Assembly (NCBI GenBank): GCA_041664585.1
Contig: JBAYKL010000001.1
Coordinates: 4,592-68,591, forward strand
Length of the DNA: 64,000 nt
Direction of reading: 5' to 3'
Origin: Minisyncoccota bacterium
GTDB taxonomy: Bacteria; Patescibacteriota; Minisyncoccia; Phycocordibacterales; GWA1-40-21
Shown here: positions 1,078 to 53,469 of the stretch, piece by piece
Position numbering within the stretch: position 1 is the stretch's first letter
Layout: the number at the start of each line of letters is the position of its first letter
The notes under the pieces: model-generated
Told to the model about the DNA's origin: nothing
What the model saw: the letters and a program-made list of their open reading frames with translations, nothing else
Databases searched by the model: none
Made by a program: the position numbers and the translations under genes

Positions 1078-2418
1078 ATGCAAAAAGATATTATTGATGA
1101 TAAAGTATATAATCATATGAGAAATGATATTGTATATGAAGGTGCTGATCAACTTACTTATGAAATAAGAGAGATAGTAAACGTTGCACAGAAAATTGAA
1201 AAAACCGGCATTAATATTTCTTGGGAAAATATTGGTGATCCTGTTGCTAAGGGAGAAAAGATTCCGCAATGGATTAAGGATATTGTCGCGGAAACTATCA
1301 AGGATGACGCTAGTTTTGCCTATTCTCCGACAAGGGGTTTATTGTCTACACGTGAATATATCGCCAAGGAAAGAAACCTTGAAGGCGGAATACAGATAAC
1401 TGCAGATAATATTTTATTTTTTAATGGTCTTGGTGATGCTATTTCAAAGGTTTACACATACCTTAATTCTAAGGCTAGAGTTATAGGTCCTAACCCAGCT
1501 TATTCTACTCATTCTTCTGCTGAAGCTGGTCATGCTGATTCTCCTCATATTACATATAAACTAGATCCAAATAACCACTGGTATCCAGATTTAAAAGATT
1601 TGAGAGAAAAGATTGAGACTAGCAAAGATATTAGTGGAATCTTAATAATAAATCCAGATAATCCAACAGGTATGGTTTATCCGGAAGAGGTTCTTAAGCA
1701 GATAATTGAGATAGCTCGTGAATTTAAATTGTTTATTATTTCTGACGAAATATATTCCAACCTTTGCTATGGTGGGATTCAACATAAAAAACTAGCTTCT
1801 GTAATAGGTGATGTACCTGGACTTGCAATGCGTGGAATATCAAAGGAATTCCCTTGGCCTGGTTCTAGGTGCGGTTGGGTAGAATTTTATAATTGCGATA
1901 AAGATGAAAGTTTTGCTCAATACGCGAAGACTCTTTTAGATGCAAAGATGTTAGAGGTTTGTTCTACAACTTTACCCCAAAAAGTTTTACCAAAAGTTAT
2001 GGGTGACCCAAGATATTATCCATATCTTATGGAACGTAATTCTGTATATCAAAAAAGATCTGAAGTTGCTTATAATATATTTTCAAAAATCCCAGAATTA
2101 ATTGTTCATAAACCAAATGGAGCTTTCTACATGACTGTTGTTTTTAAGGACGGTGTCTTGAATTCAGAACAAAAATTAGAACCGGCGAATACAGAAGCAG
2201 GAAGGATTGTAGAAGAGATATCTAAAACAGGTAAATTAGACAAAAGATTCGTATACCAGCTTTTGGCTTCTCGAGGTATCTGCGTTGTACCCCTTTCTTC
2301 TGGTTTTAATTCCAATCTTTACGGTTTTCGTATAACTTTGCTTGAACCAGATGAGAATACTTTTATTAAGATTATCGAAACCATTTCTGAGGCGGTAATC
2401 GAATATGTTTCTAGATAA
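1078..2418 (+). CDS. PLP-dependent aminotransferase class I/II (alanine/aromatic aminotransferase-like)
   Basis: 446 aa with the NPTG motif, the SKEF/SKGY-type PLP lysine region, and overall similarity to alanine aminotransferases. Confidence 0.75.
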   Translation: MQKDIIDDKVYNHMRNDIVYEGADQLTYEIREIVNVAQKIEKTGINISWENIGDPVAKGEKIPQWIKDIVAETIKDDASFAYSPTRGLLSTREYIAKERNLEGGIQITADNILFFNGLGDAISKVYTYLNSKARVIGPNPAYSTHSSAEAGHADSPHITYKLDPNNHWYPDLKDLREKIETSKDISGILIINPDNPTGMVYPEEVLKQIIEIAREFKLFIISDEIYSNLCYGGIQHKKLASVIGDVPGLAMRGISKEFPWPGSRCGWVEFYNCDKDESFAQYAKTLLDAKMLEVCSTTLPQKVLPKVMGDPRYYPYLMERNSVYQKRSEVAYNIFSKIPELIVHKPNGAFYMTVVFKDGVLNSEQKLEPANTEAGRIVEEISKTGKLDKRFVYQLLASRGICVVPLSSGFNSNLYGFRITLLEPDENTFIKIIETISEAVIEYVSR

Positions 2419-3620
2419 TGAAAATACAAAAGGAAAAATTAATCATAATACTTACGGTTTTAATAGATGTTCTTGGCATGGGGATTGTTATTCCTGTTAT
2501 GCCTTTTTATTTACAAAGCTTTGGTGCGTCACCTCTTACTATTACAATGCTTTTTTCTGTTTTTTCTTTATGTGCATTTTTAAGTTCGCCCATGCTTGGG
2601 GCTTTGTCTGACAAAGTAGGGAGAAGACCAGTTTTGCTAATAAGTATACTAAGTACAGCCATTGGTTGGTTTGTTTTTGCTTCCACAAATGTTTTGTGGA
2701 TTTTGTTTTTAGGAAGAATTATTGATGGGCTTGCTGCCGGTAATATTCCAACCGCTCAAAGTTATTTGTCTGACTTGTCTAAGACAGACAAAGAAAGATC
2801 AGCAAATCTTGGTATGATTGGTGCAATATTTGGTATTGGATTTATTGTTGGCCCAGCCATAGGAGCCGTTCTTGCTACTATTTCCACAGCTTTTCCTTTT
2901 TGGTTTGTTGGCGTGCTCGCGACAATCAATGTAATAGCCGCATATTTCTTTTTACCCGAGAGTCATCATAATAGGAATCATGATTTAAAAATTAGCTTAA
3001 ATCCAGTTCTCCCAATAGCCAGAGCCTTTAAGGACGAAAAACTTAACTCAAGATATTTAGCATGGTTTCTATATGGTATGGGGCTAGCTGCTCAACAAGC
3101 CATCTTTGCTTTATATCTAAATTATCGTTTTGGTTTTACAGCTGCTATTACTGGATATATTATGACAGCCATGGGTGTGGCTTTAGTTGTAAATCAAGGA
3201 TTTTTATTAAAAAACTTTTGGTTGAAGAAATTTAAAGAATCAACAATTGAAGTCTGGTTTTTCCTAGTAGCTGCTATTTCTTTTTTGATTTTGACTGTAC
3301 CAAGTTTTGTAATTTTTTCTATAGGTTTGATTATTATGATTACGACTCAGTCTGTTATTCGTGTAGTTATGTCTAGCAGAGCTGCTGGTATTGCCGGGCA
3401 TCAAAGAAGGGGAGAAGTAATGGGTATAATGTCGTCTGTACTTTCTGCCTCGATGGTTATTGGACCGCTTGTTGCAGGATTACTTTTTCAGACACATAAA
3501 TTGATGCCATTTATTTTTGCAGCGTTTTCTATTTTCTTAGCTTTTGTTGTTATGAAAAGAAGTCATAAAGAACCGGAGGATAAATATGAAGAATTGCCAT
3601 CTGTGCCTGAGGCGTTGTAA
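2418..3620 (+). CDS. MFS transporter
   Basis: 400 aa with about 12 predicted TM segments and the MFS signature G-x-L-S-D-K-V-G-R-R-P-V-L after TM2. It overlaps the upstream stop. Confidence 0.75.
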   Translation: MKIQKEKLIIILTVLIDVLGMGIVIPVMPFYLQSFGASPLTITMLFSVFSLCAFLSSPMLGALSDKVGRRPVLLISILSTAIGWFVFASTNVLWILFLGRIIDGLAAGNIPTAQSYLSDLSKTDKERSANLGMIGAIFGIGFIVGPAIGAVLATISTAFPFWFVGVLATINVIAAYFFLPESHHNRNHDLKISLNPVLPIARAFKDEKLNSRYLAWFLYGMGLAAQQAIFALYLNYRFGFTAAITGYIMTAMGVALVVNQGFLLKNFWLKKFKESTIEVWFFLVAAISFLILTVPSFVIFSIGLIIMITTQSVIRVVMSSRAAGIAGHQRRGEVMGIMSSVLSASMVIGPLVAGLLFQTHKLMPFIFAAFSIFLAFVVMKRSHKEPEDKYEELPSVPEAL

Positions 3621-3628
3621 ATAAAAAA

Positions 3629-3647
3629 CCAGCGAATTACTCGCTGG
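3629..3647. terminator. bidirectional terminator (strongest on minus strand for ndk)
   Basis: Hairpin ccagcgaattactcgctgg. The minus strand reads hairpin plus TTTTTTAT. Confidence 0.7.
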
Positions 3648-3665
3648 CTTTGGTGATCCTTAATC

Positions 3666-4070
3666 TTAGAAAAAGATCGATATTTCTCTCTTAGAAGATT
3701 TTTCGTCAAAAGAAGCGTGGACAGCATTTTCTCTGTTGTTTGTCCCGAACCTCTTTCGTATAGTACCCTCTTCGGCTTGAGCAGGGTTGGTGTTGCCATT
3801 AATTTTTCTTACAACTTGTATGGCATCTTCACCTTCAAGAATGAAAGCTAATGTCATACCTTTTGTCATGAAATTAATTAATGGTTCATAGAAATATTGA
3901 CCCTTATGCTCTTCATACAACTTCTCTGCTTGTTGCAAAGTCATCGGATGAAGTATTTTTCTTTTTACCATTTTTAAGCCGAGACTTTCATATATTTTGA
4001 TGATACGTATCCACGTATTATCATCTCTCCTCATCACGTCGTCTTTAATAAGAACTAAAGTTTGTTGCAC
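3666..4070 (-). CDS. ndk: nucleoside diphosphate kinase
   Basis: 134 aa. The LIKPD-like N-terminus, the NTNPAQAEEGTIR motif and the active-site His region are typical of NDK. Confidence 0.85.
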   Translation of the reverse strand: MQQTLVLIKDDVMRRDDNTWIRIIKIYESLGLKMVKRKILHPMTLQQAEKLYEEHKGQYFYEPLINFMTKGMTLAFILEGEDAIQVVRKINGNTNPAQAEEGTIRKRFGTNNRENAVHASFDEKSSKREISIFF

Positions 4071-4134
4071 TTTGCACCTCCATTTCTGTGAGGGATATTA
4101 CTATTTTTAAATAGAAATGTAAATGTTTTATGCC

Positions 4135-4163
4135 TTGCAAGCTTGCATTATATGATTTATAAT
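4135..4163 (+). promoter_or_regulatory. sigma-70-type promoter (TTGCAA-N17-TATAAT) overlapped by the 12-bp palindrome tgcaagcttgca
   Basis: The -35 box is at 4135-4140 and the -10 box at 4158-4163. The perfect palindrome at 4136-4147 covers the -35 box and the spacer. Confidence 0.55.
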
Positions 4164-4169
4164 CAGTAT

Positions 4170-4229
4170 ATGTTAATGAAAGTTAATTATATTAACAAGA
4201 TTTGGTGGACAGCTCACATAAGTGGGTAG
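4170..4229 (+). CDS. trpL: trp leader peptide (MLMKVNYINKIWWTAHISG) with tandem Trp codons
   Basis: 19-codon ORF starting 7 nt after the -10 box. The tandem TGG TGG codons are at 4203-4208. The stop codon overlaps the GTGGGT antiterminator element. Confidence 0.55.
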   Translation: MLMKVNYINKIWWTAHISG

Positions 4230-4294
4230 TCTTTTGTTGTATTAATTATCTCTAAAATAATAACAAATTATACCCACGAACAGTGGGTTTTTGT
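4222..4294 (+). promoter_or_regulatory. transcription attenuator with alternative antiterminator and terminator hairpins
   Basis: Three elements are present. GTGGGT at 4222-4227 and at 4284-4289, and ACCCAC at 4272-4277. The hairpin acccac-gaaca-gtgggt is followed by TTTTTGTATTTT. The upstream GTGGGT can pair with ACCCAC instead. Confidence 0.5.
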
Positions 4295-4406
4295 ATTTTA
4301 TAAAGTTAATCATGGAAAAGTTTATTTTTAAAAGTCATTGTAATGAGTTTTGGCGACAAAATATTTTTGTCGGTTTTTAGATTATTACTTATTAAATATA
4401 AATTAT

Positions 4407-5609
4407 ATGAAAACAAAAACATTAAAAAATTTACCAAATGAGAATGGATATTATGGAAAATTCGGAGGAAGCTTTATACCTCCACAATTAGTAGAACCGT
4501 TAAAAGAAATAGAGACGGAGTATTTGAGAGCAAAACACGATCCTGTTTTCCAGAGAGAGTATTTAGATTTACTGAAAAATTATGTTGGTAGGCCATCTCC
4601 ATTGTATTTTGCGAAAAATTTAACAGAAAAGTTGGGTGGAGCAAAAATATATCTTAAGCGCGAAGATTTGAATCATACTGGTGCTCATAAAATTAATCAT
4701 TGTATTGGAGAAGTTTTACTTGCAAAAAGAATGGGTAAGAAAAAAGTCCTTGCAGAAACAGGGGCTGGGCAACATGGTGTTGCATTAGCAACGGCCGCTG
4801 CTTTATTGGGGCTTGAGTGCGAAATACACATGGGTTCAATCGATATAAAAAAGGAACACCCTAATGTTATTCGTATGAAATTATTGGGGGCTAAGGTGGT
4901 TGAGGTTAGTACTGGTGGCAGATGTCTTAAGGACGCGGTTGATAGTGCCTTTGCTACGTTTATGAAAGAATACGAAACTACGTTCTTTGCTATCGGGTCT
5001 GTGGTTGGGCCTCATCCATATCCTATGATAGTTAGGGACTTTCAGTCTATTGTTGGTAGGGAAGCTAAGGAACAGATTTTGCTACAAGAAAAAAGATTAC
5101 CAGATTATATAATAGGTTGTGTCGGCGGCGGTTCTAATTCAATAGGACTATTTCATGAATTTCTAGATGATGATGTTAATCTTATCGGTGTAGAACCAGC
5201 TGGAAGAGGATCTGGTATTGGAGAACATGCAGCAACTATTACTTTTGGTACCGAAGGTGTGATTCATGGAATGAAAACAATTGTCTTGCAAAATAAAGAT
5301 GGTGAGCCAGATCCAGTCCACTCTATTGCTTCTGGATTAGATTATCCTGGAGTTGGACCCATTCATGCATATCTAAAGAGTATTGGAAGAGTTGAATACA
5401 CTTCTGCTTCAGATGACGAAACAATCAAAGCCTTCCTGGATTTATCAAAAATCGAAGGAATTATTCCGGCCCTTGAAAGTGCTCATGCAGTAGCATATGC
5501 AATTAAATTAGCCCCGACATTGAGTAAGGATAAAATAATAGTGGTTAATCTTTCTGGTAGAGGGGATAAGGATATCGATTATGTTGCTAAGTTATTAAAA
5601 ATAGAATAA
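4407..5609 (+). CDS. trpB: tryptophan synthase beta chain (TrpB1-type), orphan with no adjacent trpA
   Basis: The HTGAHKINH (PLP lysine) and GAGQHGVA motifs are present, with high similarity to E. coli TrpB. ATG at 4407 is the likely start. The ORF track's 4350 start is a TTG inside a hairpin. Confidence 0.85.
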
Positions 5610-5642
5610 GACTATTATTTAGTAATAAAAATATTATACAAA

Positions 5643-5666
5643 AACAGCCTATTGTGGCTGTTTTTG
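5643..5666 (+). terminator. rho-independent terminator after trpB
   Basis: Hairpin acagcctattgtggctgt followed by TTTTTG. Confidence 0.75.
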
Positions 5667-5776
5667 TATGTTGTAAAATGGTGATGTTACGGGGAATCTA
5701 ACTATATATTCTCAAAGCATTCCTTTTTTAAAATGGTATTTTTTACAGATATAGTGTATAATGGTACATATATATT

Positions 5777-6436
5777 ATGGAAAGCAAGAAAAACCTAAAA
5801 TCAGAACATTTGAAGTTTGCGGTGCTCGCGGTGGATGCCGTTTGTTTTAGAGTGAAAGAAGGCGTTTTAGAACTTCTTTTGGGAAAAATTGGTTCGGACA
5901 ATAATATCTATAAGGGCCAGTGGGCACATATTGGCGGTCTGATATATTCAGAAGAGACGGCAGATCAGTCTGTGGATAGGCTTTTGGGAGACAAGGGGGG
6001 AATAAAAAATATTCACCGGGAGCAACTATATACATTTAGCGATATTGACCGTGATCCGCGCGGGCGCGTGGTCTCTGTGGCTTATATTGCACTTACAAAC
6101 AATGATGATATTCAAAATAAAAATGACGCAGAGTTGGAAACAAAATGGTGTCCGCTGAGTAATTTACCCAAGCTAGCTTATGATCATAATGAGATCACTA
6201 AAGTGGCTGTGGAGAGATTAAGATCAAAAATCATTTATACAGATATAGCCAAATATTTTATGCCAACAGAATTCACATTGTCCGAATTGCAAAAAGTGTA
6301 TGAGGCTGTGCTGGGGGAGGGGATGGACAAGAGAAATTTTCGAAAAAGAATTATTTCCTTAAATTTACTTAAGAATACAAAAAAGACTGTGAAGAAAGGT
6401 GTGATGCGTCCTGCCACTCTGTATACTTTTAAATAA
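5777..6436 (+). CDS. nrtR: NrtR-family transcriptional regulator (degenerate Nudix domain plus C-terminal winged HTH)
   Basis: The N-terminal Nudix fold has a degenerate box (GGLIYSEETADQSVDRLLGDKGG). The C-terminus (FTLSELQKVYEAVLGEGMDKRNFRKRI) matches the NrtR DNA-binding domain. It sits directly upstream of the NAD salvage genes. Confidence 0.75.
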   Translation: MESKKNLKSEHLKFAVLAVDAVCFRVKEGVLELLLGKIGSDNNIYKGQWAHIGGLIYSEETADQSVDRLLGDKGGIKNIHREQLYTFSDIDRDPRGRVVSVAYIALTNNDDIQNKNDAELETKWCPLSNLPKLAYDHNEITKVAVERLRSKIIYTDIAKYFMPTEFTLSELQKVYEAVLGEGMDKRNFRKRIISLNLLKNTKKTVKKGVMRPATLYTFK

Positions 6437-6616: not shown

Positions 6617-7531
6617 ATGAAAAAGAAAATCGGGATCGTTGTTGGAAGGTTTCAGACGCCGTATCTCCACGAGGGGCACATACACCTTTTGGACACTGCA
6701 CAAACCTTGAGTGAGAGGACTCTAGTAGTCCTCGGAGTAAGTAGTGGGTCGCCGAGTATAAGCAACCCGATGGATTTTGAAACACGGGCAGCGATGCTCA
6801 AGTTTCAGTATCCTGACGTAATGGTTGTTCCTTTGAGGGACATATTCAGTGACAAGGTCTGGTCCGAGCGGCTGGACGCGCTGATTGAGGAGTATAGCGA
6901 TGGTGGCGAGATCACTTTGTTTGGTTCGCGGGATAGCTTCAAAAGTTTCTACAGCGGAAAGTACCCGTTTCAAGAAATCAAAGAGAAGGTTGTCTGTAAT
7001 GCAACCGAAATACGCCGGCAGGAAGCGGATGGTATTCGCAACTCACCAGACTTCAGACGCGGTGTCATGTACGCCGTTACAAAACAAGTGTATCCGATCT
7101 CATATCAAACGGTTGATGTGGTGATCAGACACACTCTGGAGAACAAGGTGATCGTCGGTCGGAAGCTGGGCGAAAGCGCTTGGCGATTTCCGGGAGGGTT
7201 TGTAGATCCGAAGGATCAAAGCCTAGAACTTGCGGCCAAACGAGAGGTGGGGGAAGAAGTCGGCGATGTTGAGATAGACGATGTGAAATACATAGGCTCA
7301 ATACGGGTTGATGATTATCGCTATCGTAAATCGCAACACAAGATTATGACCGCGCTTTTCACGGCTGCATATGTTTGCGGTTCGTTGGAAGCAGGAGATG
7401 ATCTTGAGGAGGTTCGCTGGCAGGACGTTGATGGGCTCATGAGTTGCCTCGTTGAGGTGCATAAACCTCTGGGCGAGGCGTATCTAAAACATATCGGAAA
7501 GTATGAAATAAACAACAGAAAGGAAAGCTAA
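6617..7531 (+). CDS. nadM: bifunctional NMN adenylyltransferase / ADP-ribose pyrophosphatase (NadM-Nudix)
   Basis: N-terminal cytidylyltransferase fold with GRFQTPYLHEGH (HxGH motif). C-terminal Nudix domain (WRFPGGFVDP...KREVGEEVG). SD AGGGGG lies 7 nt upstream. GC-rich. Confidence 0.8.
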   Translation: MKKKIGIVVGRFQTPYLHEGHIHLLDTAQTLSERTLVVLGVSSGSPSISNPMDFETRAAMLKFQYPDVMVVPLRDIFSDKVWSERLDALIEEYSDGGEITLFGSRDSFKSFYSGKYPFQEIKEKVVCNATEIRRQEADGIRNSPDFRRGVMYAVTKQVYPISYQTVDVVIRHTLENKVIVGRKLGESAWRFPGGFVDPKDQSLELAAKREVGEEVGDVEIDDVKYIGSIRVDDYRYRKSQHKIMTALFTAAYVCGSLEAGDDLEEVRWQDVDGLMSCLVEVHKPLGEAYLKHIGKYEINNRKES

Positions 7532-7533
7532 AC

Positions 7534-8919
7534 ATGAACATTCAGTCAAATATTCTTCTAATGACGGACAGCTACAAGGTAAGTCACTACAAGCAGTATC
7601 CAGCCAAGACAAATCGGGTTCTCTCGTTCTTTGAGAGCCGCGGCGGCAGATACGGTGGGGTTCTCTTCTTCGGTCTGCAGTATCTGATCAAGAAGTACCT
7701 CGAGGGCCAGGTGGTTACCGAGGAAAAGATTCAAGAAGCTAAGGAAGTCTTTCAGGCTCACTTTGGCAACCAGAGTCTTTTCAACGAAGCAGGCTGGCGC
7801 CATATTCTTCAAGAGCATGGTGGAAGACTGCCGATCGAGATCAAGGCGGTGCCTGAAGGAACACTGGTTCCGGTGTCGAACGTGCTGGTTACAGTTGTTA
7901 ATACTGATCCAGCAGTGCCGTGGCTTACGAATTACGTGGAGACTTTGCTGGTCCAGTTGTGGTATCCCACGACAGTGGCCACACAGAGCTACTTCATGCG
8001 ACAGACCATTCTGCAATACCTGGAAGAAACGGGAACGCCTGGAGATATAGACTTCAAGCTTCACGATTTCGGGTATCGCGGCAGCACGACGGTGGAGTCT
8101 GCTGGAATTGGTGGGGTGGCTCACCTGGTCAACTTCAAGGGCACAGACACGATTGAGTCACTCGTGGTCGCTAAGCGCTATTATGGCGAGGCGATGGCGG
8201 GTTTCTCGATTCCGGCGGCAGAGCACAGCACGATTACTTCTTGGGGTCGAAACCGCGAGGTAGACGCTTACGAGAATATGCTGACTCAGTATCCGGACGG
8301 GCCGGTGGCGGTGGTGAGCGACAGCTTTAACATCTTCGAGGCATGCGAAAAGCTTTGGGGTGGAAAGCTTCGGCAAAAGGTATTAGCGCGCAACGGCGTG
8401 CTAGTCATCCGGCCAGACAGCGGAGATCCACTTCAGGTTTTGCCCAAGGTGCTTGGCATCCTGGGTGAAAAATTTGGATACACCGTGAACCTGAAAGGGT
8501 ACAAGGTGCTAAGTCCGAAGGTTCGCTTGATTCAGGGTGATGGAATCAATTATGAGAGCGTTGGGGAGATCCTCGAAGCTCTCAAGCAGGCCGGATGGTC
8601 CGCTGATAACATCGCCTTTGGTTCGGGTGGCGGCCTGTTGCAGATGCTCAATCGCGATACGCAGAAGTTTGCTTTCAAGTGCTGCGCTATCGAGATCGAT
8701 GGTGTCTGGTCTGATGTCATGAAAGATCCGGTCACGGATAGTGGTAAACGCTCGAAGGCTGGTCGGCTTGCACTGGTCCTGGACGGCAAAACGTATCAAA
8801 CAGTGAAGGAGGATGAAATAGGAGTGAGAGCTGATCTTCTTATTCCGGTCTTTCGGAACGGGAAGCTCCTCGTGGATCAGAAGTTTGCGGATATCCGCAA
8901 ACGGGCTCTCGTCGGTTAG
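7534..8919 (+). CDS. nadV: nicotinamide phosphoribosyltransferase (NAMPT/NadV)
   Basis: 461 aa. The N-terminus NILLMTDSYKVSHYKQYP and overall length are typical of NAMPT. Strongly GC-rich relative to the window. Confidence 0.85.
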   Translation: MNIQSNILLMTDSYKVSHYKQYPAKTNRVLSFFESRGGRYGGVLFFGLQYLIKKYLEGQVVTEEKIQEAKEVFQAHFGNQSLFNEAGWRHILQEHGGRLPIEIKAVPEGTLVPVSNVLVTVVNTDPAVPWLTNYVETLLVQLWYPTTVATQSYFMRQTILQYLEETGTPGDIDFKLHDFGYRGSTTVESAGIGGVAHLVNFKGTDTIESLVVAKRYYGEAMAGFSIPAAEHSTITSWGRNREVDAYENMLTQYPDGPVAVVSDSFNIFEACEKLWGGKLRQKVLARNGVLVIRPDSGDPLQVLPKVLGILGEKFGYTVNLKGYKVLSPKVRLIQGDGINYESVGEILEALKQAGWSADNIAFGSGGGLLQMLNRDTQKFAFKCCAIEIDGVWSDVMKDPVTDSGKRSKAGRLALVLDGKTYQTVKEDEIGVRADLLIPVFRNGKLLVDQKFADIRKRALVG

Positions 8920-10554: not shown

Positions 10555-11613
10555 ATGTCATCAACAATTATCTTAGGTATTTTGTTAGTAATAGTAACCT
10601 CATTACTTTTGTGGCTTGCTTTGTTCAAAAAGGCAGGAGAAGGTAAAAGAGGAGATGATATTGGTCTAAAGCTTATCCTCGAACAAATAAACGAGCTCAA
10701 TAGAACGGTAGATACTAAAATAGGGGAATCTTCTAAACAAATGCACGAATCTCTTAAACATCAGTCTAGTGAATCTTTTAATATTATTCGTGATATTACA
10801 GAAAAGCTTACAAGACTTGATGAGACAAATAAACAAGTTGTTTCTTTTGCAGATCAGCTTCAATCACTTCAGGATATTTTGAAAAATCCTAAACAAAGAG
10901 GAATTCTTGGAGAATATTATCTTGAAACTCTACTTAAAAATGTTTTACCTACAGGAAGTTATCAAATGCAATTTCCGTTTGCAGACGGCACAATTGTAGA
11001 CGCTGTTGTGTTTGTGAAAGATAAAATTATTCCTATAGACTCAAAATTTTCTCTCGAAAATTATAATCGTTTAGTAGAAGAAAAGAATCCAGCTGAGAAA
11101 GAGAGATTAGAGAAATTATTCAGAGATGATCTTAAAAAGAGAATTGATGAGACCTCAAAATATGTAAAGCCAGGTGAGGGGACTATGGACTTTGCTTTTA
11201 TGTTCATTCCCCACGAAGCAATATATTATGATCTTTTAGTTTCTCAAGTTGGAGCAGTAAAAGTAAATACTAGGGATTTAGTAGAGTATGCATTTAAAGA
11301 AAAGCATGTAATTATTGTCTCCCCAACTTCTTTTTTGGCATATCTACAAACCGTTCTTCAGGGGCTTAAGGCTATGCAAATAGAAGAATCAGCCAAGGAT
11401 ATTAAAAAGAATGTTGAGAATCTACAAAAACATCTGAGAAGCTATCAGGAATATCAAGAGAAGCTTGGTAATGCCCTCTCTACTACAGTAAGCCATTTTA
11501 ATAATTCAAATAAAGAATTTAAGAAGATAGATAAGGACGTGGTGAAGATTACGGGGATAGAGTCTGAGCTTGAAGTGCTAGAAATCGCAAAGCCAGAGAG
11601 GGAAGATGAGTAG
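10555..11613 (+). CDS. rmuC: DNA recombination protein RmuC
   Basis: N-terminal TM segment, a long coiled coil, and a C-terminal RmuC nuclease-like region. Confidence 0.7.
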   Translation: MSSTIILGILLVIVTSLLLWLALFKKAGEGKRGDDIGLKLILEQINELNRTVDTKIGESSKQMHESLKHQSSESFNIIRDITEKLTRLDETNKQVVSFADQLQSLQDILKNPKQRGILGEYYLETLLKNVLPTGSYQMQFPFADGTIVDAVVFVKDKIIPIDSKFSLENYNRLVEEKNPAEKERLEKLFRDDLKKRIDETSKYVKPGEGTMDFAFMFIPHEAIYYDLLVSQVGAVKVNTRDLVEYAFKEKHVIIVSPTSFLAYLQTVLQGLKAMQIEESAKDIKKNVENLQKHLRSYQEYQEKLGNALSTTVSHFNNSNKEFKKIDKDVVKITGIESELEVLEIAKPEREDE

Positions 11614-11647: not shown

Positions 11648-14600
11648 ATGAAAAATCAAAAACAATCCCAATATGACCACACAAAAATAGAAAAAAAGTG
11701 GCAAAAATATTGGACAGCAAAGAAAATTTACAAAACAACTGAAGATACTAAAAAAGAGAAACTATATGTTCTTGATATGTTTCCATATCCATCTGGTGTG
11801 GGTCTTCATGTGGGTCATCCTAGGGGCTATGTAGCTTCTGACGTTTACGCCCGTTTCAAAAGAATGAATGGCTTTAATGTACTTCACCCTATGGGTTACG
11901 ACGCTTTTGGTCTTCCTGCCGAACAATATGCTATTCAAAATAAAATACATCCTAAAAAAGCAGTTGAAGAAAATATTGAAACATTTAGAAAACAATTAGA
12001 TTTAATTGGTTTATCTTATGATTGGTCTCGTGTAGTAAACACAACTGATCCAAAATATTATAAATGGACACAGTGGATTTTTCTTAAGCTCTATGAATCT
12101 TGGTATAACAAAATAAGTAATAAAGCTGAACCCATTGAAAATCTTACAAAGTTTTTTGAGAAAGAAGGTAATCAAAATATTGATGCGGTTTGCGATTCTG
12201 ATATAAAAATATTTTCAGCTACAGAATGGAAATCTTTCAGTGATTTAGAAAAGCATAATATTTTAATGAAATATCGTTTAGCTTTCGAAGGTTTTTCAGA
12301 AGTTAATTGGTGTCCGGAAATGGGAACTGTTCTTGCGAATGATGAAATAATAGATGGACCAGATGGTAAACCAGTATCTGAAAGAGGCGGTTATCCCGTA
12401 GAGAAAAAAACATTGAGACAGTGGTTTTTGAGAATTACAGCCTATGCGGATAGACTTATAGAAGGATTAGATAGAGTAGATTGGTCTCAACACATAAAGG
12501 AAATACAAAAAAATTGGGTTGGAAAATCCATTGGTTCTGAAATAACTTTTGCTATAAAAGGTATGGAAGAAAAAATAAACGTGTTTACAACCAGAGCTGA
12601 TACTTTGTTTGGTGTTACTTACGTTGTTCTTGCTCCAGAGACTGATTTGGTAAAAAAGCTTTTATCAAAAATTTTAAATAGAAAAGAAGTAGAAAAATAT
12701 ATTGCGGACGTAAAACTTAAAACAGATGAGGATCGTATGAGTACTGTTAAAGAAAAAACGGGTGTGATACTCGAAGGTGTAAAAGCTATTAATCCTGCAA
12801 ATCAAGAAGAAGTACCAGTGTTCGTCGCGGATTACGTTCTAGCTACCTATGGTACGGGTATGGTAATGGCCGTACCTGCACATGATGACAGGGATTTTGC
12901 TTTTGCAAAGAAATATAATTTACCTATAAGAGAGGCTATCGTTCCAGAAAGAATAGACAAAAGAAACCCACCTGTTCCTGGTAAGAAAATTGTAGAAAGA
13001 AAAAATGTGCATGTGGTAGTTAAAAATCCAAAAACAGGAATGTATGTTGGTTTAAAATACAGAAAACACGATTGGACCACTTTCCCGATGGGTGGAATTG
13101 AAGAGGGAGAAAGTTTGATTGATTCTGCCAAGAGAGAATTACTTGAAGAGACTGGTTACAAAAATGTCACTGAGGGTGTTATTTTAGGTGGACAAGTTCG
13201 TGCGGAATATTTTGCTGCTCATAAGGATCAAAACAGAGTCTCTTATACAAATTTAGTGTATTTTGAGCTACTAGATGAAGAGAAAGAAAAAATTAGTGAT
13301 GAGGAAAATGAAGAACACGAAGTAATATGGCTTAGTGAAAAAGATATAAATTCAAGTTTGATGACTCACGCTGAAATGGATATTTGGCTTGATAGATTAA
13401 GCAAGGGGGATATTGCTTATACAGATAACGGTATTATGGTAAATTCCGGAGAATTTAACGGTTTAAATAATCTAGATGCAATAAAAAAGATTACAGATTT
13501 CGTTGGTGGAAAAATTGTTACTAAATACAAAATGCGTGATGCCGTATTTGCTCGTCAGAGATATTGGGGAGAACCCATTCCGTTAATACATAAAAAAGAT
13601 GGGACGATTTCTACTGTAAACGAAAACAAATTACCACTAGAGTTACCAAACGTTATCTCGTATGAACCTATTGGGAATGGTGAATCACCGCTTGCTGGTG
13701 TAAAAGATTGGGTAGAAAAAGGTTACGAAACAAATACAATGCCTGGTTGGGCAGGATCTTCCTGGTACTTCTTACGTTATATGGATCCACAGAATAAAAA
13801 AGGCTTTGTTGGAGAGAAAGCTTTAAAATATTGGAAACAGGTAGATATGTATGTAGGTGGTGCTGAGCATGCTACTGGGCATTTATTGTATTCAAGATTC
13901 TGGAATAAGTTTTTATTTGACTACGGGCTTGTTATTGAGGATGAACCATTCAAAGCTCTTAGGAATCAAGGAATGATACAAGGTTCTGATGGAAGAAGAA
14001 TGAGTAAGAGATGGGGGAACGTTGTAAACCCAGATGAGGTTGTAAAAAATGTCGGCGCAGATACTTTGAGAGTTTACGAATCATTTATGGGGCCTTTTGA
14101 GCAAGAAATTTCTTGGAGTACAGATAGTATGGTTGGATCAAGAAGATTCTTGGAAAGAGTATGGAAGCTTCAAGAAAAAGTAGTTGCAAATTTTGCAGAT
14201 TCAAGCGAAACAGAAGCACTTTTACACAAAACAATTAAAAAAGTTGGAGAAGATATAGATTCATTTAATGCAAACACAGCTATTTCTTCTATGATGATTT
14301 TGTTAAATCATTTAGATGGAATAGAGAGTATTAGCGAAGACTTATATTTGAATTACATAAAAATCCTTTCACCTTTTGCGCCACATATGTGTGAAGAAAT
14401 TTGGGCAAATTTGGAACAGAAGAAATCTATAGTATTAGCAGATTGGCCTAAGTATGATGAATCAAAAATAAAGTCTGCGAAGGTAAATATACCTGTGCAG
14501 ATAAACGGTAGAGTAAGAGCATCGCTTATTGTTGACACTGATCTTGACCAAACATTAGTAGAGAAGCTTGCTTTGGAAAATCCTGATGTTAAAAAATGGC

Positions 14601-14665
14601 TTGAAGGTAAAGAAATAAAGAAGAAAATATTTGTTAAAAACAAAATTTTGAACTTAGTAATTTAA
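11648..14665 (+). CDS. leuS: leucyl-tRNA synthetase with an inserted Nudix hydrolase domain
   Basis: HVGHPRGY (HIGH motif), the CP1 editing domain and KMSKRWGN (KMSKS motif) are all present. At 1005 aa it is about 150-200 aa longer than typical bacterial LeuRS. The insert at roughly nt 12945-13430 contains a perfect Nudix box GGIEEGESLIDSAKRELLEETGY. Confidence 0.9.
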   Translation: MKNQKQSQYDHTKIEKKWQKYWTAKKIYKTTEDTKKEKLYVLDMFPYPSGVGLHVGHPRGYVASDVYARFKRMNGFNVLHPMGYDAFGLPAEQYAIQNKIHPKKAVEENIETFRKQLDLIGLSYDWSRVVNTTDPKYYKWTQWIFLKLYESWYNKISNKAEPIENLTKFFEKEGNQNIDAVCDSDIKIFSATEWKSFSDLEKHNILMKYRLAFEGFSEVNWCPEMGTVLANDEIIDGPDGKPVSERGGYPVEKKTLRQWFLRITAYADRLIEGLDRVDWSQHIKEIQKNWVGKSIGSEITFAIKGMEEKINVFTTRADTLFGVTYVVLAPETDLVKKLLSKILNRKEVEKYIADVKLKTDEDRMSTVKEKTGVILEGVKAINPANQEEVPVFVADYVLATYGTGMVMAVPAHDDRDFAFAKKYNLPIREAIVPERIDKRNPPVPGKKIVERKNVHVVVKNPKTGMYVGLKYRKHDWTTFPMGGIEEGESLIDSAKRELLEETGYKNVTEGVILGGQVRAEYFAAHKDQNRVSYTNLVYFELLDEEKEKISDEENEEHEVIWLSEKDINSSLMTHAEMDIWLDRLSKGDIAYTDNGIMVNSGEFNGLNNLDAIKKITDFVGGKIVTKYKMRDAVFARQRYWGEPIPLIHKKDGTISTVNENKLPLELPNVISYEPIGNGESPLAGVKDWVEKGYETNTMPGWAGSSWYFLRYMDPQNKKGFVGEKALKYWKQVDMYVGGAEHATGHLLYSRFWNKFLFDYGLVIEDEPFKALRNQGMIQGSDGRRMSKRWGNVVNPDEVVKNVGADTLRVYESFMGPFEQEISWSTDSMVGSRRFLERVWKLQEKVVANFADSSETEALLHKTIKKVGEDIDSFNANTAISSMMILLNHLDGIESISEDLYLNYIKILSPFAPHMCEEIWANLEQKKSIVLADWPKYDESKIKSAKVNIPVQINGRVRASLIVDTDLDQTLVEKLALENPDVKKWLEGKEIKKKIFVKNKILNLVI

Positions 14666-32944: not shown

Positions 32945-33217
32945 ATGGATTTGAGCGAATTAAGAAATGAAATAGATCAAATAGATAGGGAATTTTTGAG
33001 TATTTTATCAAAAAGAATGAAGTTGATACCGAAGGTTGCTGAATACAAGAAAAAGAATAGTATTAAAAGATATCAACCTGAACGTGAGAAAGAGGTGATT
33101 AAATTAAGAAGAGAGTTGGCAAAAGAACTGAATATTAGCTCGGATCTTGTGGAATCTATTTTTAAGGAAATTATAAAAGATGCTCATAAGATAGAGGAGC
33201 AAATAATGGGAGAATAA
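32945..33217 (+). CDS. chorismate mutase (AroQ class, stand-alone)
   Basis: 90 aa with the LRNEIDQIDREFLSILSKRM N-terminus typical of AroQ. Confidence 0.75.
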   Translation: MDLSELRNEIDQIDREFLSILSKRMKLIPKVAEYKKKNSIKRYQPEREKEVIKLRRELAKELNISSDLVESIFKEIIKDAHKIEEQIMGE

Positions 33218-33219
33218 AC

Positions 33220-34872
33220 ATGAAAATATGCATTATTGGCGGTAGCGGAAATTTCGGGCAATTTTTTACAAAAATATTTAGTGATAACAAACACGAAGTA
33301 TTTTCTATAGGAAGGGCAAATATTAAAAAAATAAAAAACTACGTAGAACAAAGCGATGTAGTAGTTATTTCTGTACCAAATGAAGCAATTAAAACTTACA
33401 CAGATATATTAGGTAAGATTGTTAATCAAAAACAACTTGTCATAGATATTTCATCTGTTATGAGTAGTAACTTAACTGCTATAAAGAAACTCAAGTGCCA
33501 GTCTGTTTTTTTGCATCCTCTTTTTGCTCCAAATATTAAAAAAGGAAAAGCTTTTAAATATGTCTTAGCACCAGTAAATTTAAAGAATAGAAAATTGCTT
33601 AAGGAATTTCTAAACATTTTGGAAAATAACGGATCCGTAATAAAAGAGACCTCTGTCGAAAATCATGAAAAAATGATGGCCTATGTTCAAGCATTATCAC
33701 ATTTTAACAGTATTCTATTAACTAAAGTTTTGGCTAATTCTGATTTAGACGCTAAAGAAATCGAGGAATTTTCTACAACCTTCTTTCGTTTAAGTTTCGA
33801 TGCATCCTCTAGGATTTTTGCACAGAAATCTGAAATTTATGCAGATATACAATTTAATAATAGTTATTTTTTAGATGTCATTGAAGATTATGAAGAAAAT
33901 CTTAGAGAAATTAAGAAAATCATAATTGATAAAGATTATTTAGAATATCAAAAAGTATTTGATAAAATAATAAAAAAACTTTCACCGTTACTAAAAGAAT
34001 CATTTGACGAGAGTCAGTCTTTAATTAAAAATCTTTCGGATAATTTTAAAAGGGTTGGTTACCTTGGACCAGAAGGCAGTTATTCTGAAATGGCCGCTGA
34101 ATTTTTAATGTCATACGAAAAACTTGTACCATCAGAGACAATCGCAGACATAATAAGTAAGGTAAACAATGGCGAATTGGATTTTGGTGTCCTACCAATA
34201 GAGAATTCAATACAAGGAAGTATTATAGAAACAGTTGATGGATTATATAAAAATAAATTATTTATCCAACAAGAATTAGTCGTACCAATTAAACATTGCG
34301 TGGCTGGTTTAGTGTCTAAAATAGTTCCTGAAAAAATTGAAATTGTGATGTCACATCCTCAAGCCTTGGGACAATGTTCAGAGTATATAAATAAACATTT
34401 TCCTAATGCTAAAAGAATGATTATAAATAGTACTGCACAAGCTTTTAAAAAGATTATAGATGAAAGTCTATCTAACGCCGTAGCTATTGGTAATAAAACT
34501 GCCGCTCTTAAATATAATTTAAAGATATTTGATGAAGATATCCAGGATGTAGAAAATAATGAAACCAAATTCGTATTAGTTAAAAAAACCTTTAATATAA
34601 ATTCAAAAGGCCAAGTGTCTAGTTTTGTCATTGTTCCTAAGAAGGACAGATCCGGTCTTCTTTTTGATATTCTGGGATATTTTAAAGAAAATAATATTAA
34701 TTTAAACAAAATCGAATCAAGACCGCTAAAGTCTGGCCTCGGTAAATATATATTTCATATTGATATACAGGGTAATTTTAAAGATAAAAATGTAGAGCGA
34801 GCTATTAGCGGAATTAAAAAGGAAAGCGAGGTAATATTTTTAGGTAGCTATAATCAAGAGAGATATAAGTAA
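33220..34872 (+). CDS. fused prephenate dehydrogenase (TyrA) / prephenate dehydratase (PheA) with ACT domain
   Basis: The N-terminus has a Rossmann motif IIGGSGNFG and a TyrA-like domain. The middle has the PDT start LGPEGSYSE. The C-terminal ACT domain carries the ESRP motif. Confidence 0.7.
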   Translation: MKICIIGGSGNFGQFFTKIFSDNKHEVFSIGRANIKKIKNYVEQSDVVVISVPNEAIKTYTDILGKIVNQKQLVIDISSVMSSNLTAIKKLKCQSVFLHPLFAPNIKKGKAFKYVLAPVNLKNRKLLKEFLNILENNGSVIKETSVENHEKMMAYVQALSHFNSILLTKVLANSDLDAKEIEEFSTTFFRLSFDASSRIFAQKSEIYADIQFNNSYFLDVIEDYEENLREIKKIIIDKDYLEYQKVFDKIIKKLSPLLKESFDESQSLIKNLSDNFKRVGYLGPEGSYSEMAAEFLMSYEKLVPSETIADIISKVNNGELDFGVLPIENSIQGSIIETVDGLYKNKLFIQQELVVPIKHCVAGLVSKIVPEKIEIVMSHPQALGQCSEYINKHFPNAKRMIINSTAQAFKKIIDESLSNAVAIGNKTAALKYNLKIFDEDIQDVENNETKFVLVKKTFNINSKGQVSSFVIVPKKDRSGLLFDILGYFKENNINLNKIESRPLKSGLGKYIFHIDIQGNFKDKNVERAISGIKKESEVIFLGSYNQERYK

Positions 34873-52977: not shown

Positions 52978-53469
52978 ATGACTAATGCAGTGCTAGTTTT
53001 ATATACGAGACTCAACCCTATAAATAGGCAACTCGAAGTGCTCTTTGCAAAAAAACACGCTGAAGCGAAAGTTGGTGCTGGTAAACTCAATGGCTACGGT
53101 GGTTGTATTGATCCAGGGGAAACTCCAGCTCAAGCAGCTATAAGAGAAACCAGTGAAGAAGCTGGTGAAAATTTCTTGGTACTTGAAAAAGATCTCAAAG
53201 CTAGAGGTATAATAACTTTCTATGATCATGAGATAAGACCAAAATGGAAAGTGTATATCTTTGTCTGCGACAGGTTCAGTGGCGAACCGAAGGAGTCCAA
53301 AGAGATGCTTGATCCCAAGTGGTTTGATGCAGATCAAATTCCTAAGCTCGATATACTACCAGCAGACAAACTATTCATGCCAAAGATTCTATCTGGCAAA
53401 ACCGTTCATAACGGATGGGTTATCTTCAAAAGGAACTTCAGCGGTGTTAGGGGATATGGTGGTTTTTAA
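52978..53469 (+). CDS. Nudix hydrolase (MutT-like)
   Basis: Perfect Nudix box GGCIDPGETPAQAAIRETSEEAG. AAGGAG SD. Confidence 0.8.
   Translation: MTNAVLVLYTRLNPINRQLEVLFAKKHAEAKVGAGKLNGYGGCIDPGETPAQAAIRETSEEAGENFLVLEKDLKARGIITFYDHEIRPKWKVYIFVCDRFSGEPKESKEMLDPKWFDADQIPKLDILPADKLFMPKILSGKTVHNGWVIFKRNFSGVRGYGGF

Follow-up and report, generated by a model that had tools for sequence, protein, structure and literature searches.

The 64-kb window analysed here (64,000 nucleotides (nt) of contig JBAYKL010000001.1, assigned to a Minisyncoccota bacterium) contains a lone trpB, the gene for the beta subunit of tryptophan synthase, and we consider it likely that this gene is controlled by a two-stage leader, in which a ribosome-mediated attenuator of the trp type is followed by a second module made of a short upstream open reading frame (uORF2) and its own hairpin. 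Our confidence differs between the two parts. The first stage is very likely to be a trp-type attenuator of the classic kind; for the second stage, the interpretation as a terminator that is masked by a ribosome waiting at a Trp codon stands at roughly even chances. A preliminary description of the locus, made from the sequence alone, had proposed attenuation of a lone trpB after the pattern of E. coli trpL, and covariation and folding under a ribosome mask now bear this out. Stage 1 displays all of the testable defining features of the leader-peptide class of trp attenuators, namely an open reading frame (ORF) with Trp codons, a terminator ahead of the gene, an antiterminator that excludes the terminator, and the corresponding geometry of stall site and stop codon. 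The elements of this stage and of its promoter are as follows.

4135-4140, forward strand: −35 hexamer TTGCAA, identified by direct reading and by promoter scan, with a 17-nt spacer to the −10 hexamer.
4158-4163, forward strand: −10 hexamer TATAAT, 6 nt ahead of the leader ATG in a leaderless arrangement.
4170-4229, forward strand: leader ORF 1, 19 codons from the ATG at 4170 to the TAG at 4227-4229, encoding the peptide MLMKVNYINKIWWTAHISG, with TGG TGG at 4203-4208.
4207-4217, forward strand: segment 1, GGACAGCTCAC, the 5′ arm of the 1:2 hairpin, which begins in the second Trp codon.
4222-4232, forward strand: segment 2, GTGGGTAGTCT, overlapping the stop codon, with segments 1 and 3 as its alternative partners.
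4233-4240 with 4260-4267, forward strand: central AU-rich hairpin, found by folding and enclosed by the antiterminator.
4271-4277, forward strand: segment 3, TACCCAC, which pairs with segment 2 (antiterminator) or with segment 4 (terminator).
4283-4299, forward strand: segment 4, GTGGGT at 4283-4288, and the U-run TTTTGTATTTT at 4289-4299, which together with segment 3 make up intrinsic terminator 1.

Much of this anatomy had already been recognised. The preliminary description placed a 19-codon ORF with two consecutive TGG codons behind a TTGCAA-N17-TATAAT promoter, and direct reading finds both, at 4170-4229 and 4135-4163 respectively. It also noted that the stop codon overlaps a GTGGGT element, and the two do share one base: the pairing elements are GTGGGT at 4222-4227, ACCCAC at 4272-4277 and a second GTGGGT at 4283-4288. 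ACCCAC can pair with either of its partners, as claimed, but it lies 44 nt and not 43 nt downstream of the first, and the terminator tail, although present, is correctly written TTTTGTATTTT, the last T of the stem having been counted twice. The 1:2 hairpin, the central hairpin, and uORF2 with its own hairpin and U-run (4354-4378) had not been mentioned.

Stage 1 would operate in the following way. Transcription is predicted to start some 6-7 nt past TATAAT, so that the messenger would begin at or beside the AUG and be leaderless, and a ribosome would translate the 19-codon leader. When charged tRNA-Trp is scarce, this ribosome would stall at UGG UGG (4203-4208), which sits six codons ahead of the stop, and would cover segment 1; segment 2 would then be free to form the 2:3 antiterminator, the 3:4 hairpin would be blocked and the polymerase would read on. 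With Trp plentiful, the ribosome would reach the stop codon inside segment 2 and 3:4 with its U-run would form, while in a transcript that carries no ribosome 1:2 would form, followed again by 3:4 and the U-run. In both of these non-stalled cases, termination would be expected near 4290-4299. Because 1:2 begins inside the second UGG, a ribosome awaiting tRNA-Trp would necessarily open it. The same overlap affects how the peptide is to be read: the C-terminal WWTAHISG of leader 1 looks conserved because those codons are the hairpin.

The predicted structures are readily found in the window itself. The unconstrained minimum free energy fold of 4165-4300 (z = −2.5) consists of the 1:2 hairpin, the central hairpin and the 3:4 terminator. 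A terminator scan of 3600-6000 returned seven terminator-like sites where 1.3 were expected, and three of them fall within the leader (4212-4227, 4272-4288 and 4354-4372). Comparison with Rfam gave no match at gathering level. Trp_leader (RF00513) scores 23.3 bits (E = 0.029) at 4197-4296, below the gathering threshold of 41 bits, so that stage 1 is not a member of RF00513 by score; despite this, the terminator and the UGG UGG codons fall into the correct register of the model.

The comparative evidence comes from trpB loci in related genomes, which we refer to where necessary by locus labels (L003, L005 and so on). The regions upstream of trpB in these relatives contain a short ORF with two adjacent Trp codons (WW, in some cases a single W) 6-8 codons before its stop, followed by hairpins and a U-run. 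When the leader-bearing loci were folded one by one in a co-transcriptional manner, 1:2, 2:3 and 3:4 were found with nucleotides in common in 20 of 20: segment 2 is common to 1:2 and 2:3, segment 3 is common to 2:3 and 3:4, and 2:3 overlaps 1:2 by 5-10 nt and 3:4 by 5-8 nt in every one. Across related loci of the Patescibacteria or candidate phyla radiation (CPR), at least nine different core sequences serve this same architecture, among them the following.

Window and close relatives: core GUGGG/CCCAC.
L009: core GCGGG/CCCGU.
L016: core AGCGG/CCGCU.
L017: core AAGCGG/CCGCUU.
L018 and L020: core CGGG/CCCCG.
L019: core GGCGG/CCGCC.
L021: core UCGGGUGG/CCGUCCCGA.
L023: core GGGUAG/CUACCC.

Several independent sequence solutions for one architecture constitute, at the level of sequence comparison, strong evidence for an attenuator.

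The preliminary description had suggested folding 4165-4300 under two ribosome positions and aligning the leader in related genomes, and both analyses support its main reading. The ribosome was represented by a mask that reached 15 nt to the 5′ side and 12 nt to the 3′ side of the A-site codon, a size assumed from E. coli. In 16 of 19 loci, the window included, a mask at the Trp codons abolished the terminator and a mask at the stop codon restored it; the stalled-ribosome folds of relatives also contain a central hairpin similar to that of the window. Alignment was based on a covariance model built from 11 close sequences, since MAFFT misaligned the distant leaders. Searches with this model at E up to 10 gave many spurious and reverse-strand matches, and a limit of E up to 0.0005 gave a clean alignment of 28 sequences. 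The WW (or single W) codons are conserved and all three helices carry compensatory changes. The 1:2 and 3:4 helices together are 94.9% paired in this alignment, with seven pairs changed on both sides, against 33-49% in slid controls. Taken separately, 1:2 has 93.6% of cells paired and three pairs changed on both sides, and 3:4 is 97.1% paired with four of its five pairs compensatory. The 2:3 antiterminator, to which the model was not fitted, is 96.4% paired and shows three compensatory pairs (slid controls, 34-56%).

Conservation extends to the promoter. A TTGCAA/TTGACA-like box with a 17-nt spacer is conserved among the relatives, and TATAAT or TACAAT followed after six nucleotides by ATG or GTG is kept in nearly all related loci. 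We count the promoter as evidence because the hexamers are conserved in relatives and not because of the hexamer scan, in which they are by themselves at chance level (nine found, 9.3 expected). The leaderless start proposed in the preliminary description is likewise upheld by the conserved 6-nt spacing between the −10 box and the ATG, and the same arrangement recurs at other genes of the genome. An exact TATAAT lies 5-8 nt ahead of the start in 4 of 44 window genes, compared with 0.5% of all ATG triplets; the genes concerned are those at 10555, 18536, 32221 and 34899, where the distance is 6-7 nt. A Shine-Dalgarno-like motif is present in only 8 of the 44. The conserved spacing, the genes with TATAAT before their start and the scarcity of Shine-Dalgarno motifs therefore indicate that leaderless initiation is normal in the source organism, and initiation that is leaderless or lacks a Shine-Dalgarno sequence seems to be the rule in its genome. 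There is precedent for such leaders in Streptomyces, where leaderless Trp leader peptides, one of them with a single Trp, are documented (PMC8079986).

Beyond terminator 1, the preliminary description counted a further 115 nt before trpB and named no element in them. This interval is no plain spacer, as it holds a conserved uORF and a second terminator-like hairpin.

4312-4380, forward strand: uORF2, consensus M-x-K-F-I-F-K-x-H-C-T-E-F-W-R, whose invariant single Trp is codon 14, at 4351-4353.
4354-4378, forward strand: hairpin 2, CGACAAAA-TAT-TTTTGTCG at 4354-4372 and then GTTTTT (to 4378), a terminator-like site in the scan.

The first 15 codons of uORF2 are conserved in 19 of the 25 loci that were found through TrpB. 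A degenerate DNA pattern for the peptide retrieved 28 metagenome contigs, all with the match upstream of a trpB-like start, and a regular expression for the peptide, run over about 1 Mb in six frames, gave a single match per locus in 48 loci, always upstream of trpB, and none elsewhere; the Trp is at codon 14 in 46 of the 48. To keep the search pattern from biasing the count, codon differences were tallied among loci found through TrpB only: in the uORF2 frame 36% of the codons that differ are synonymous, compared with 3.5% and 17% in the two alternative frames, and third positions are twice as variable as first or second ones. Between distant clades, the identity of the residues that precede the Trp is about 0.5 for uORF2 and about 0.1 for leader 1. 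The synonymous bias, the fixed position of the Trp and the identity across clades together argue that selection acts on the uORF2 peptide itself. The conserved block corresponds to the 10-12 residues that would sit in the exit tunnel during decoding of the Trp codon, and the part that follows W-R is variable. Neither leader 1 nor uORF2 matches any family in Pfam or NCBIfam.

Two other origins of this conservation were considered and rejected. RNA structure within the ORF does not account for a synonymous bias that is confined to one frame, and a regular N-terminal extension of TrpB would require uORF2 to be in frame with trpB and open, which is so in only 3 of about 20 loci, roughly as expected by chance. 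In L003 (near 5750) the ATG of leader 1, and in L024 (near 5900) that of uORF2, is replaced by ATA, which could be a near-cognate start, a sign of a decaying copy or an assembly error.

Hairpin 2 was judged locus by locus against random control windows. Its 5′ arm in the window begins at the Arg codon that directly follows the Trp codon, and a hairpin at the UGG-CGN codons is found in 31 of 37 distinct loci but in only 13% of controls. The tails that follow are U-rich, with 5.9 T in 10 nt compared with 3.1, and under a stricter terminator rule that demands both a hairpin and a U-rich tail the count is 27 of 37 loci against 2.7% of controls. The third base of the uORF2 Arg codon covaries with its partner in the stem. 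The stop of uORF2 varies in position from codon 16 to beyond codon 30; in most relatives it comes only 1-4 codons past the Trp, and in the window uORF2 runs through the hairpin. One locus, L089 (reverse strand, near 833), has uORF2 without leader 1 before trpB, in a form that is three codons longer at the N-terminus, and the second module can therefore stand alone. The same contig carries a TrpR-like gene and trpS.

On the interpretation that we favour, transcripts that read through terminator 1 would meet a second checkpoint, consisting of a uORF2 of 15-27 codons with one invariant Trp codon. The last bases of this codon and the Arg codon that follows would form the 5′ arm of hairpin 2. A ribosome held at the Trp codon would mask this arm and allow the polymerase to continue into trpB, and without a ribosome hairpin 2 would form. 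Two such checkpoints in series would be expected to sharpen the response.

Several points weigh against this two-stage interpretation. The stem of terminator 1 is short, at 5-6 bp of which 4 are G-C, and in 3 of the 19 masked loci (L015, L016 and L023) the terminator persists in the thermodynamic fold with a stalled ribosome; these terminators are much stronger than the corresponding antiterminators, and the switch there would have to be kinetic. The pairing percentages given above come from an alignment fitted to 1:2 and 3:4 and from sequences that are related, and for such material shuffle controls overstate significance and shuffle counts are not probabilities. At stage 2, RNAalifold gave no consensus structure for the uORF2 region, variable loop lengths causing the 3′ arm to be misaligned, and there is no alternative antiterminator structure. 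In about one locus in four, hairpin 2 is not followed by a good U-run. Moreover, a ribosome that sits at the uORF2 stop, or that simply translates through, would mask hairpin 2 as well, so that a dependence on Trp is not obvious, and the conservation of the uORF2 peptide is not accounted for by an attenuator that simply counts codons. The transcription start site, both termination events and the direction of the response to Trp are predictions.

The main rival to a Trp-codon-dependent mask at stage 2 is that uORF2 encodes an arrest peptide. The chain F-I-F-K-x-H-C-T-E-F-W-R would then halt translation at the Trp codon or beside it and in this way control hairpin 2; the ribosome might be responding to free Trp, indole or serine as a small-molecule ligand, or might be exceptionally sensitive to the supply of tRNA-Trp. 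Amino-acid conservation across clades in which leader 1 is not conserved would fit such a peptide, as would a synonymous bias restricted to the uORF2 frame and the near-fixed position of the Trp in the 48 loci. The same can be said of a conserved stretch of exit-tunnel length ahead of a variable C-terminal part, and of the failure to match any known family. Stalling is nevertheless a conjecture from sequence, and no similarity to TnaC or to other known arrest peptides is apparent from general knowledge or from Pfam and NCBIfam. The UGG-CGN part of the conservation is, furthermore, explained by hairpin 2, and a sensor of free Trp would imply induction by Trp, which is the wrong direction for a biosynthetic gene. 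On balance we regard an arrest peptide as a tentative possibility that is appreciably less probable than a mask at the Trp codon. If it is correct, uORF2 would represent a new arrest-peptide family, found here only upstream of trpB in loci mostly labelled CPR, and an arrest peptide gating a one-hairpin terminator downstream of a leaderless WW attenuator would amount to a two-sensor cascade.

An unlikely alternative is that hairpin 2 is not a conditional terminator at all but a pause site or a structure with a role in stabilisation or processing, and that uORF2 acts through translation by loading ribosomes for trpB, which has no Shine-Dalgarno sequence at its start. The loci without a proper U-run are in keeping with this, and four distant loci (L015, L020, L021 and L023) keep uORF2 without the hairpin. 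The spacing of the two reading frames is also suggestive in places: in L005 the stop of uORF2 and the ATG of trpB overlap (ATATGA), and in L007, L015 and L023 the two share one frame that no stop interrupts, such that uORF2 would extend the N-terminus of TrpB. In most loci, however, the uORF2 stop lies 12-52 nt before trpB, which is too far for tight coupling. The twofold enrichment of U-rich tails over controls and the location of the invariant Trp codon precisely at the base of the stem, as a Trp sensor would need, both argue for a conditional terminator.

A further layer of control had been proposed in the preliminary description, in which a perfect palindrome over the −35 box serves as the operator of a repressor. 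The 12-nt palindrome TGCAAGCTTGCA does exist, at 4136-4147, but the repressor that was attached to it is very improbable. The window contains 18 perfect palindromes of 12 nt, which puts TGCAAGCTTGCA no higher than chance, and none of the relatives keeps it, though both promoter boxes are kept. TTGCAA is self-complementary, and the palindrome arises from a local CTTGCA repeat. A TrpR-like operator could nonetheless be imagined because such control does occur among the relatives. In a sister clade of Nomurabacteria (L010, L011 and L013), trpS and a gene for a TrpR/YerC-like protein of 96 amino acids lie just upstream (for example, L011 3897-7191), and the promoter bears operator-like, CTAG-cored repeats of the GTACTAGTAC type. 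This is followed by a different WW leader, MNTRNKINKNNENKLKLWWSAKASVFALFC (...KLWWSAKASVFALFC), one terminator and then trpB. L025 has the same repeats and leader and is too short to show the upstream genes; uORF2 is absent from all four of these loci. Beyond the sister clade, L089 has the TrpR-like gene, and in L016 and L022 operator-like repeats occur together with both leader modules. By contrast, TGCAAGCTTGCA lacks the CTAG core of these repeats, and a tblastn search with a TrpR-like protein query found no match in the window. A repressor layer thus exists in the group, without evidence for one at the window locus. A strong minus-strand promoter-like site (TTAACA-N18-TATAAT, 11 of 12 matches) at 4147-4176 is interleaved with the trpB leader promoter and faces ndk (3666-4070); the palindrome would fall in its start region.

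The last alternative, that the leader is read by a T-box sensing uncharged tRNA, a TRAP-like protein or a riboswitch and that the short ORFs are incidental, has a precedent in the Firmicutes, whose trp genes are generally known to use T-boxes or else use TRAP (PMC3064811), but it is rejected as scarcely credible on the Rfam scan of 3900-4600, where at E up to 10 Trp_leader is the only match and no T-box or riboswitch appears, on the absence by direct reading of a TRAP-type series of (G/U)AG repeats (about 9-11, 2-3 nt apart) from 4164-4300, and on the conservation of the ORFs, the Trp codons and the position of the stop relative to segment 2 across loci of diverse sequence.

Comparison with described systems places the two modules differently. 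Stage 1 resembles E. coli trpL in its two adjacent Trp codons near the end of the leader ORF, in its 1:2, 2:3 and 3:4 alternatives, in having the stop codon within segment 2, and in a G+C-rich terminator that is followed by a U-run. It departs from trpL in that the window leader is apparently leaderless and has no Shine-Dalgarno sequence, and in that it precedes a single trpB rather than trpEDCBA. A second uORF-hairpin module follows, the host belongs to the CPR, and the RF00513 score is low (23.3 against 41 bits). Stage 2 is closer to pyrBI and pyrE of E. coli, which are single-hairpin translation-coupled attenuators whose signal is the pausing of polymerase at low UTP. As in those systems, stage 2 has one hairpin, and read-through would need a ribosome on the 5′ arm at the time when the U-run is made; its signal would, however, be the dwell of the ribosome at one Trp codon, and the uORF2 peptide is conserved whereas pyrL is not. 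A short uORF that encodes a conserved peptide with a conserved Trp, upstream of a gene of Trp or indole metabolism, also recalls TnaC. In TnaC the Trp is essential, the ribosome stalls at the stop codon, an Asp and a Pro are conserved, and the peptide acts on Rho-dependent termination. Unlike TnaC, uORF2 has a variable C-terminus and stop position and precedes a structure like an intrinsic terminator. The sequences are not similar, and the conserved Trp of uORF2 is not followed by a conserved Asp or Pro.

In style, the described systems that come closest are the leaderless peptides of Streptomyces, TrpL1 (MFAHSTRNWWWTAHPAAH) before trpE and TrpL2 (MMTRTCTQLWRAA) before trpS (PMC8079986); candidate trp attenuators have also been listed for actinobacteria (PMC1262725). 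As in Streptomyces, the window has a leaderless leader peptide and a single monocistronic Trp-related gene under its control. Leader 1 and TrpL1 share the string WWTAH, and uORF2 (...HCTEFWR...) resembles TrpL2 (...TCTQLWRAA) in its single Trp followed by Arg with C-T-x-x before. In Streptomyces the two peptides stand at two genes, whereas in the window the two types stand in tandem before one, and base composition and hairpin sequences differ. The likeness of the peptides spans few residues, is in part dictated by RNA pairing and could reflect either descent or convergence. Small ORFs of another kind lie 120-190 nt upstream of trpB in four Sphaerochaeta loci (L050, L056, L061 and L073), ending in ...LRWRR* or ...SISWRR* with one Trp followed by Arg in each, and may be another single-Trp leader family. 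In terms of metabolism, the closest parallel is trpRBA of Chlamydia trachomatis, which serves the salvage of indole, retains trpA and is controlled by the TrpR repressor (PMC9378776, PMC4042155). In both cases only the end of the Trp pathway, its final step or steps, is kept in a reduced genome, presumably to convert external indole to Trp, and expression is tied to Trp supply; the window differs in that neither trpA nor TrpR was found in it and in that control would be by attenuation.

The gene at the end of this leader and the terminator that closes the transcription unit are described as follows.

4407-5609, forward strand: trpB, encoding a canonical tryptophan synthase beta subunit of 400 amino acids (Pfam PALP; NCBIfam TIGR00263).
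5636-5669, both strands: bidirectional intrinsic terminator after trpB, from the scan, with a 14-bp stem and T-runs.

The assignment to the TrpB1 type made in the preliminary description agrees with a TIGR00263 score of 571 bits (cutoff 392), compared with 187.8 bits for the TrpB2-like TIGR01415 (cutoff 518.85). Its statement that no other trp genes lie nearby also stands, in that Pfam scans of all sizeable ORFs and tblastn searches with E. coli TrpA, TrpC, TrpD and TrpE found no trpA, trpC, trpD or trpE in the 64-kb window. The lone status of trpB thus refers to this window and not to the whole genome. No other trp genes were found by tblastn with E. coli queries within about 6 kb of trpB in the leader-bearing relatives, nor was trpA found with the E. 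coli TrpA query within about 6 kb of trpB in 55 ordinary non-CPR loci (L026-L080). The latter result means either that the search is insensitive or that this branch of TrpB is commonly stand-alone outside the CPR as well. Because searches with E. coli queries may be insensitive, the absence of other trp genes rests mainly on the Pfam scans. A role in scavenging indole plus serine, as the preliminary description had put forward, is a reasonable inference from the gene content.

The closest TrpB loci, at 75-90% identity, belong to metagenome-assembled genomes labelled Candidatus Paceibacterota, Nomurabacteria and other Patescibacteria. Four loci with the same leader architecture (L018, L019, L022 and L024) are labelled Gammaproteobacteria, Pseudomonadales or Legionella, and could be mis-binned CPR contigs or real occurrences outside the CPR. 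The window has a G+C content of 30-40% and a housekeeping gene content of the small-genome type (rpoB, rpoC, primase, a sigma factor, DnaB, several tRNA synthetases and cell-wall genes). A small ORF at 32946-33217 is a candidate chorismate-mutase-like gene by the look of its sequence, and is followed at 33220-34872 by a fused prephenate dehydrogenase, prephenate dehydratase and ACT protein. Together with the lone trpB, these prephenate genes suggest that aromatic amino acid synthesis may have been kept in its final steps only. An aminotransferase and an MFS transporter are encoded upstream of ndk (1078-3620). Directly downstream of trpB, a NUDIX-rich group comprising an NrtR-like ADP-ribose-responsive repressor (5777-6436), an adenylyltransferase-NUDIX fusion (6617-7531) and a nicotinamide phosphoribosyltransferase (7534-8919) looks like a putative NAD salvage cluster, and a further NUDIX protein is encoded at 52978-53469. 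The leucyl-tRNA synthetase (11648-14665, 1005 amino acids) has a NUDIX domain inserted at residues 451-574, just past its editing domain, which is an unusual domain combination.

Bacteria of the CPR, or Patescibacteria, are uncultured, have tiny genomes and are thought to possess little regulatory capacity. Our literature searches turned up no account of leader-peptide attenuation in these bacteria and no paper on their trpB. What we describe is a classic attenuator in a lineage without a described case, leaderless in form and extended by a second module with a previously undescribed conserved uORF. To a specialist, the surprise lies in the second module and in the CPR setting and not in the classic part. 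The uORF2 module is a compact candidate, with about 70 nt and 15 conserved residues, either for sensing of Trp by a single codon or for a new arrest peptide, and could be studied in a cell-free system without a culture. The sister clade combines a TrpR-like repressor with another type of leader, so that two ways of regulating one gene can be compared as they occur in nature. If our interpretation is correct, a full kinetic switch coupling transcription to translation has been kept under selection across several CPR lineages, where it would control, by way of leaderless translation, what is apparently a last-step enzyme for the salvage of indole to tryptophan. This points to tryptophan, or to indole from hosts or neighbours, as a closely monitored nutrient for these organisms.

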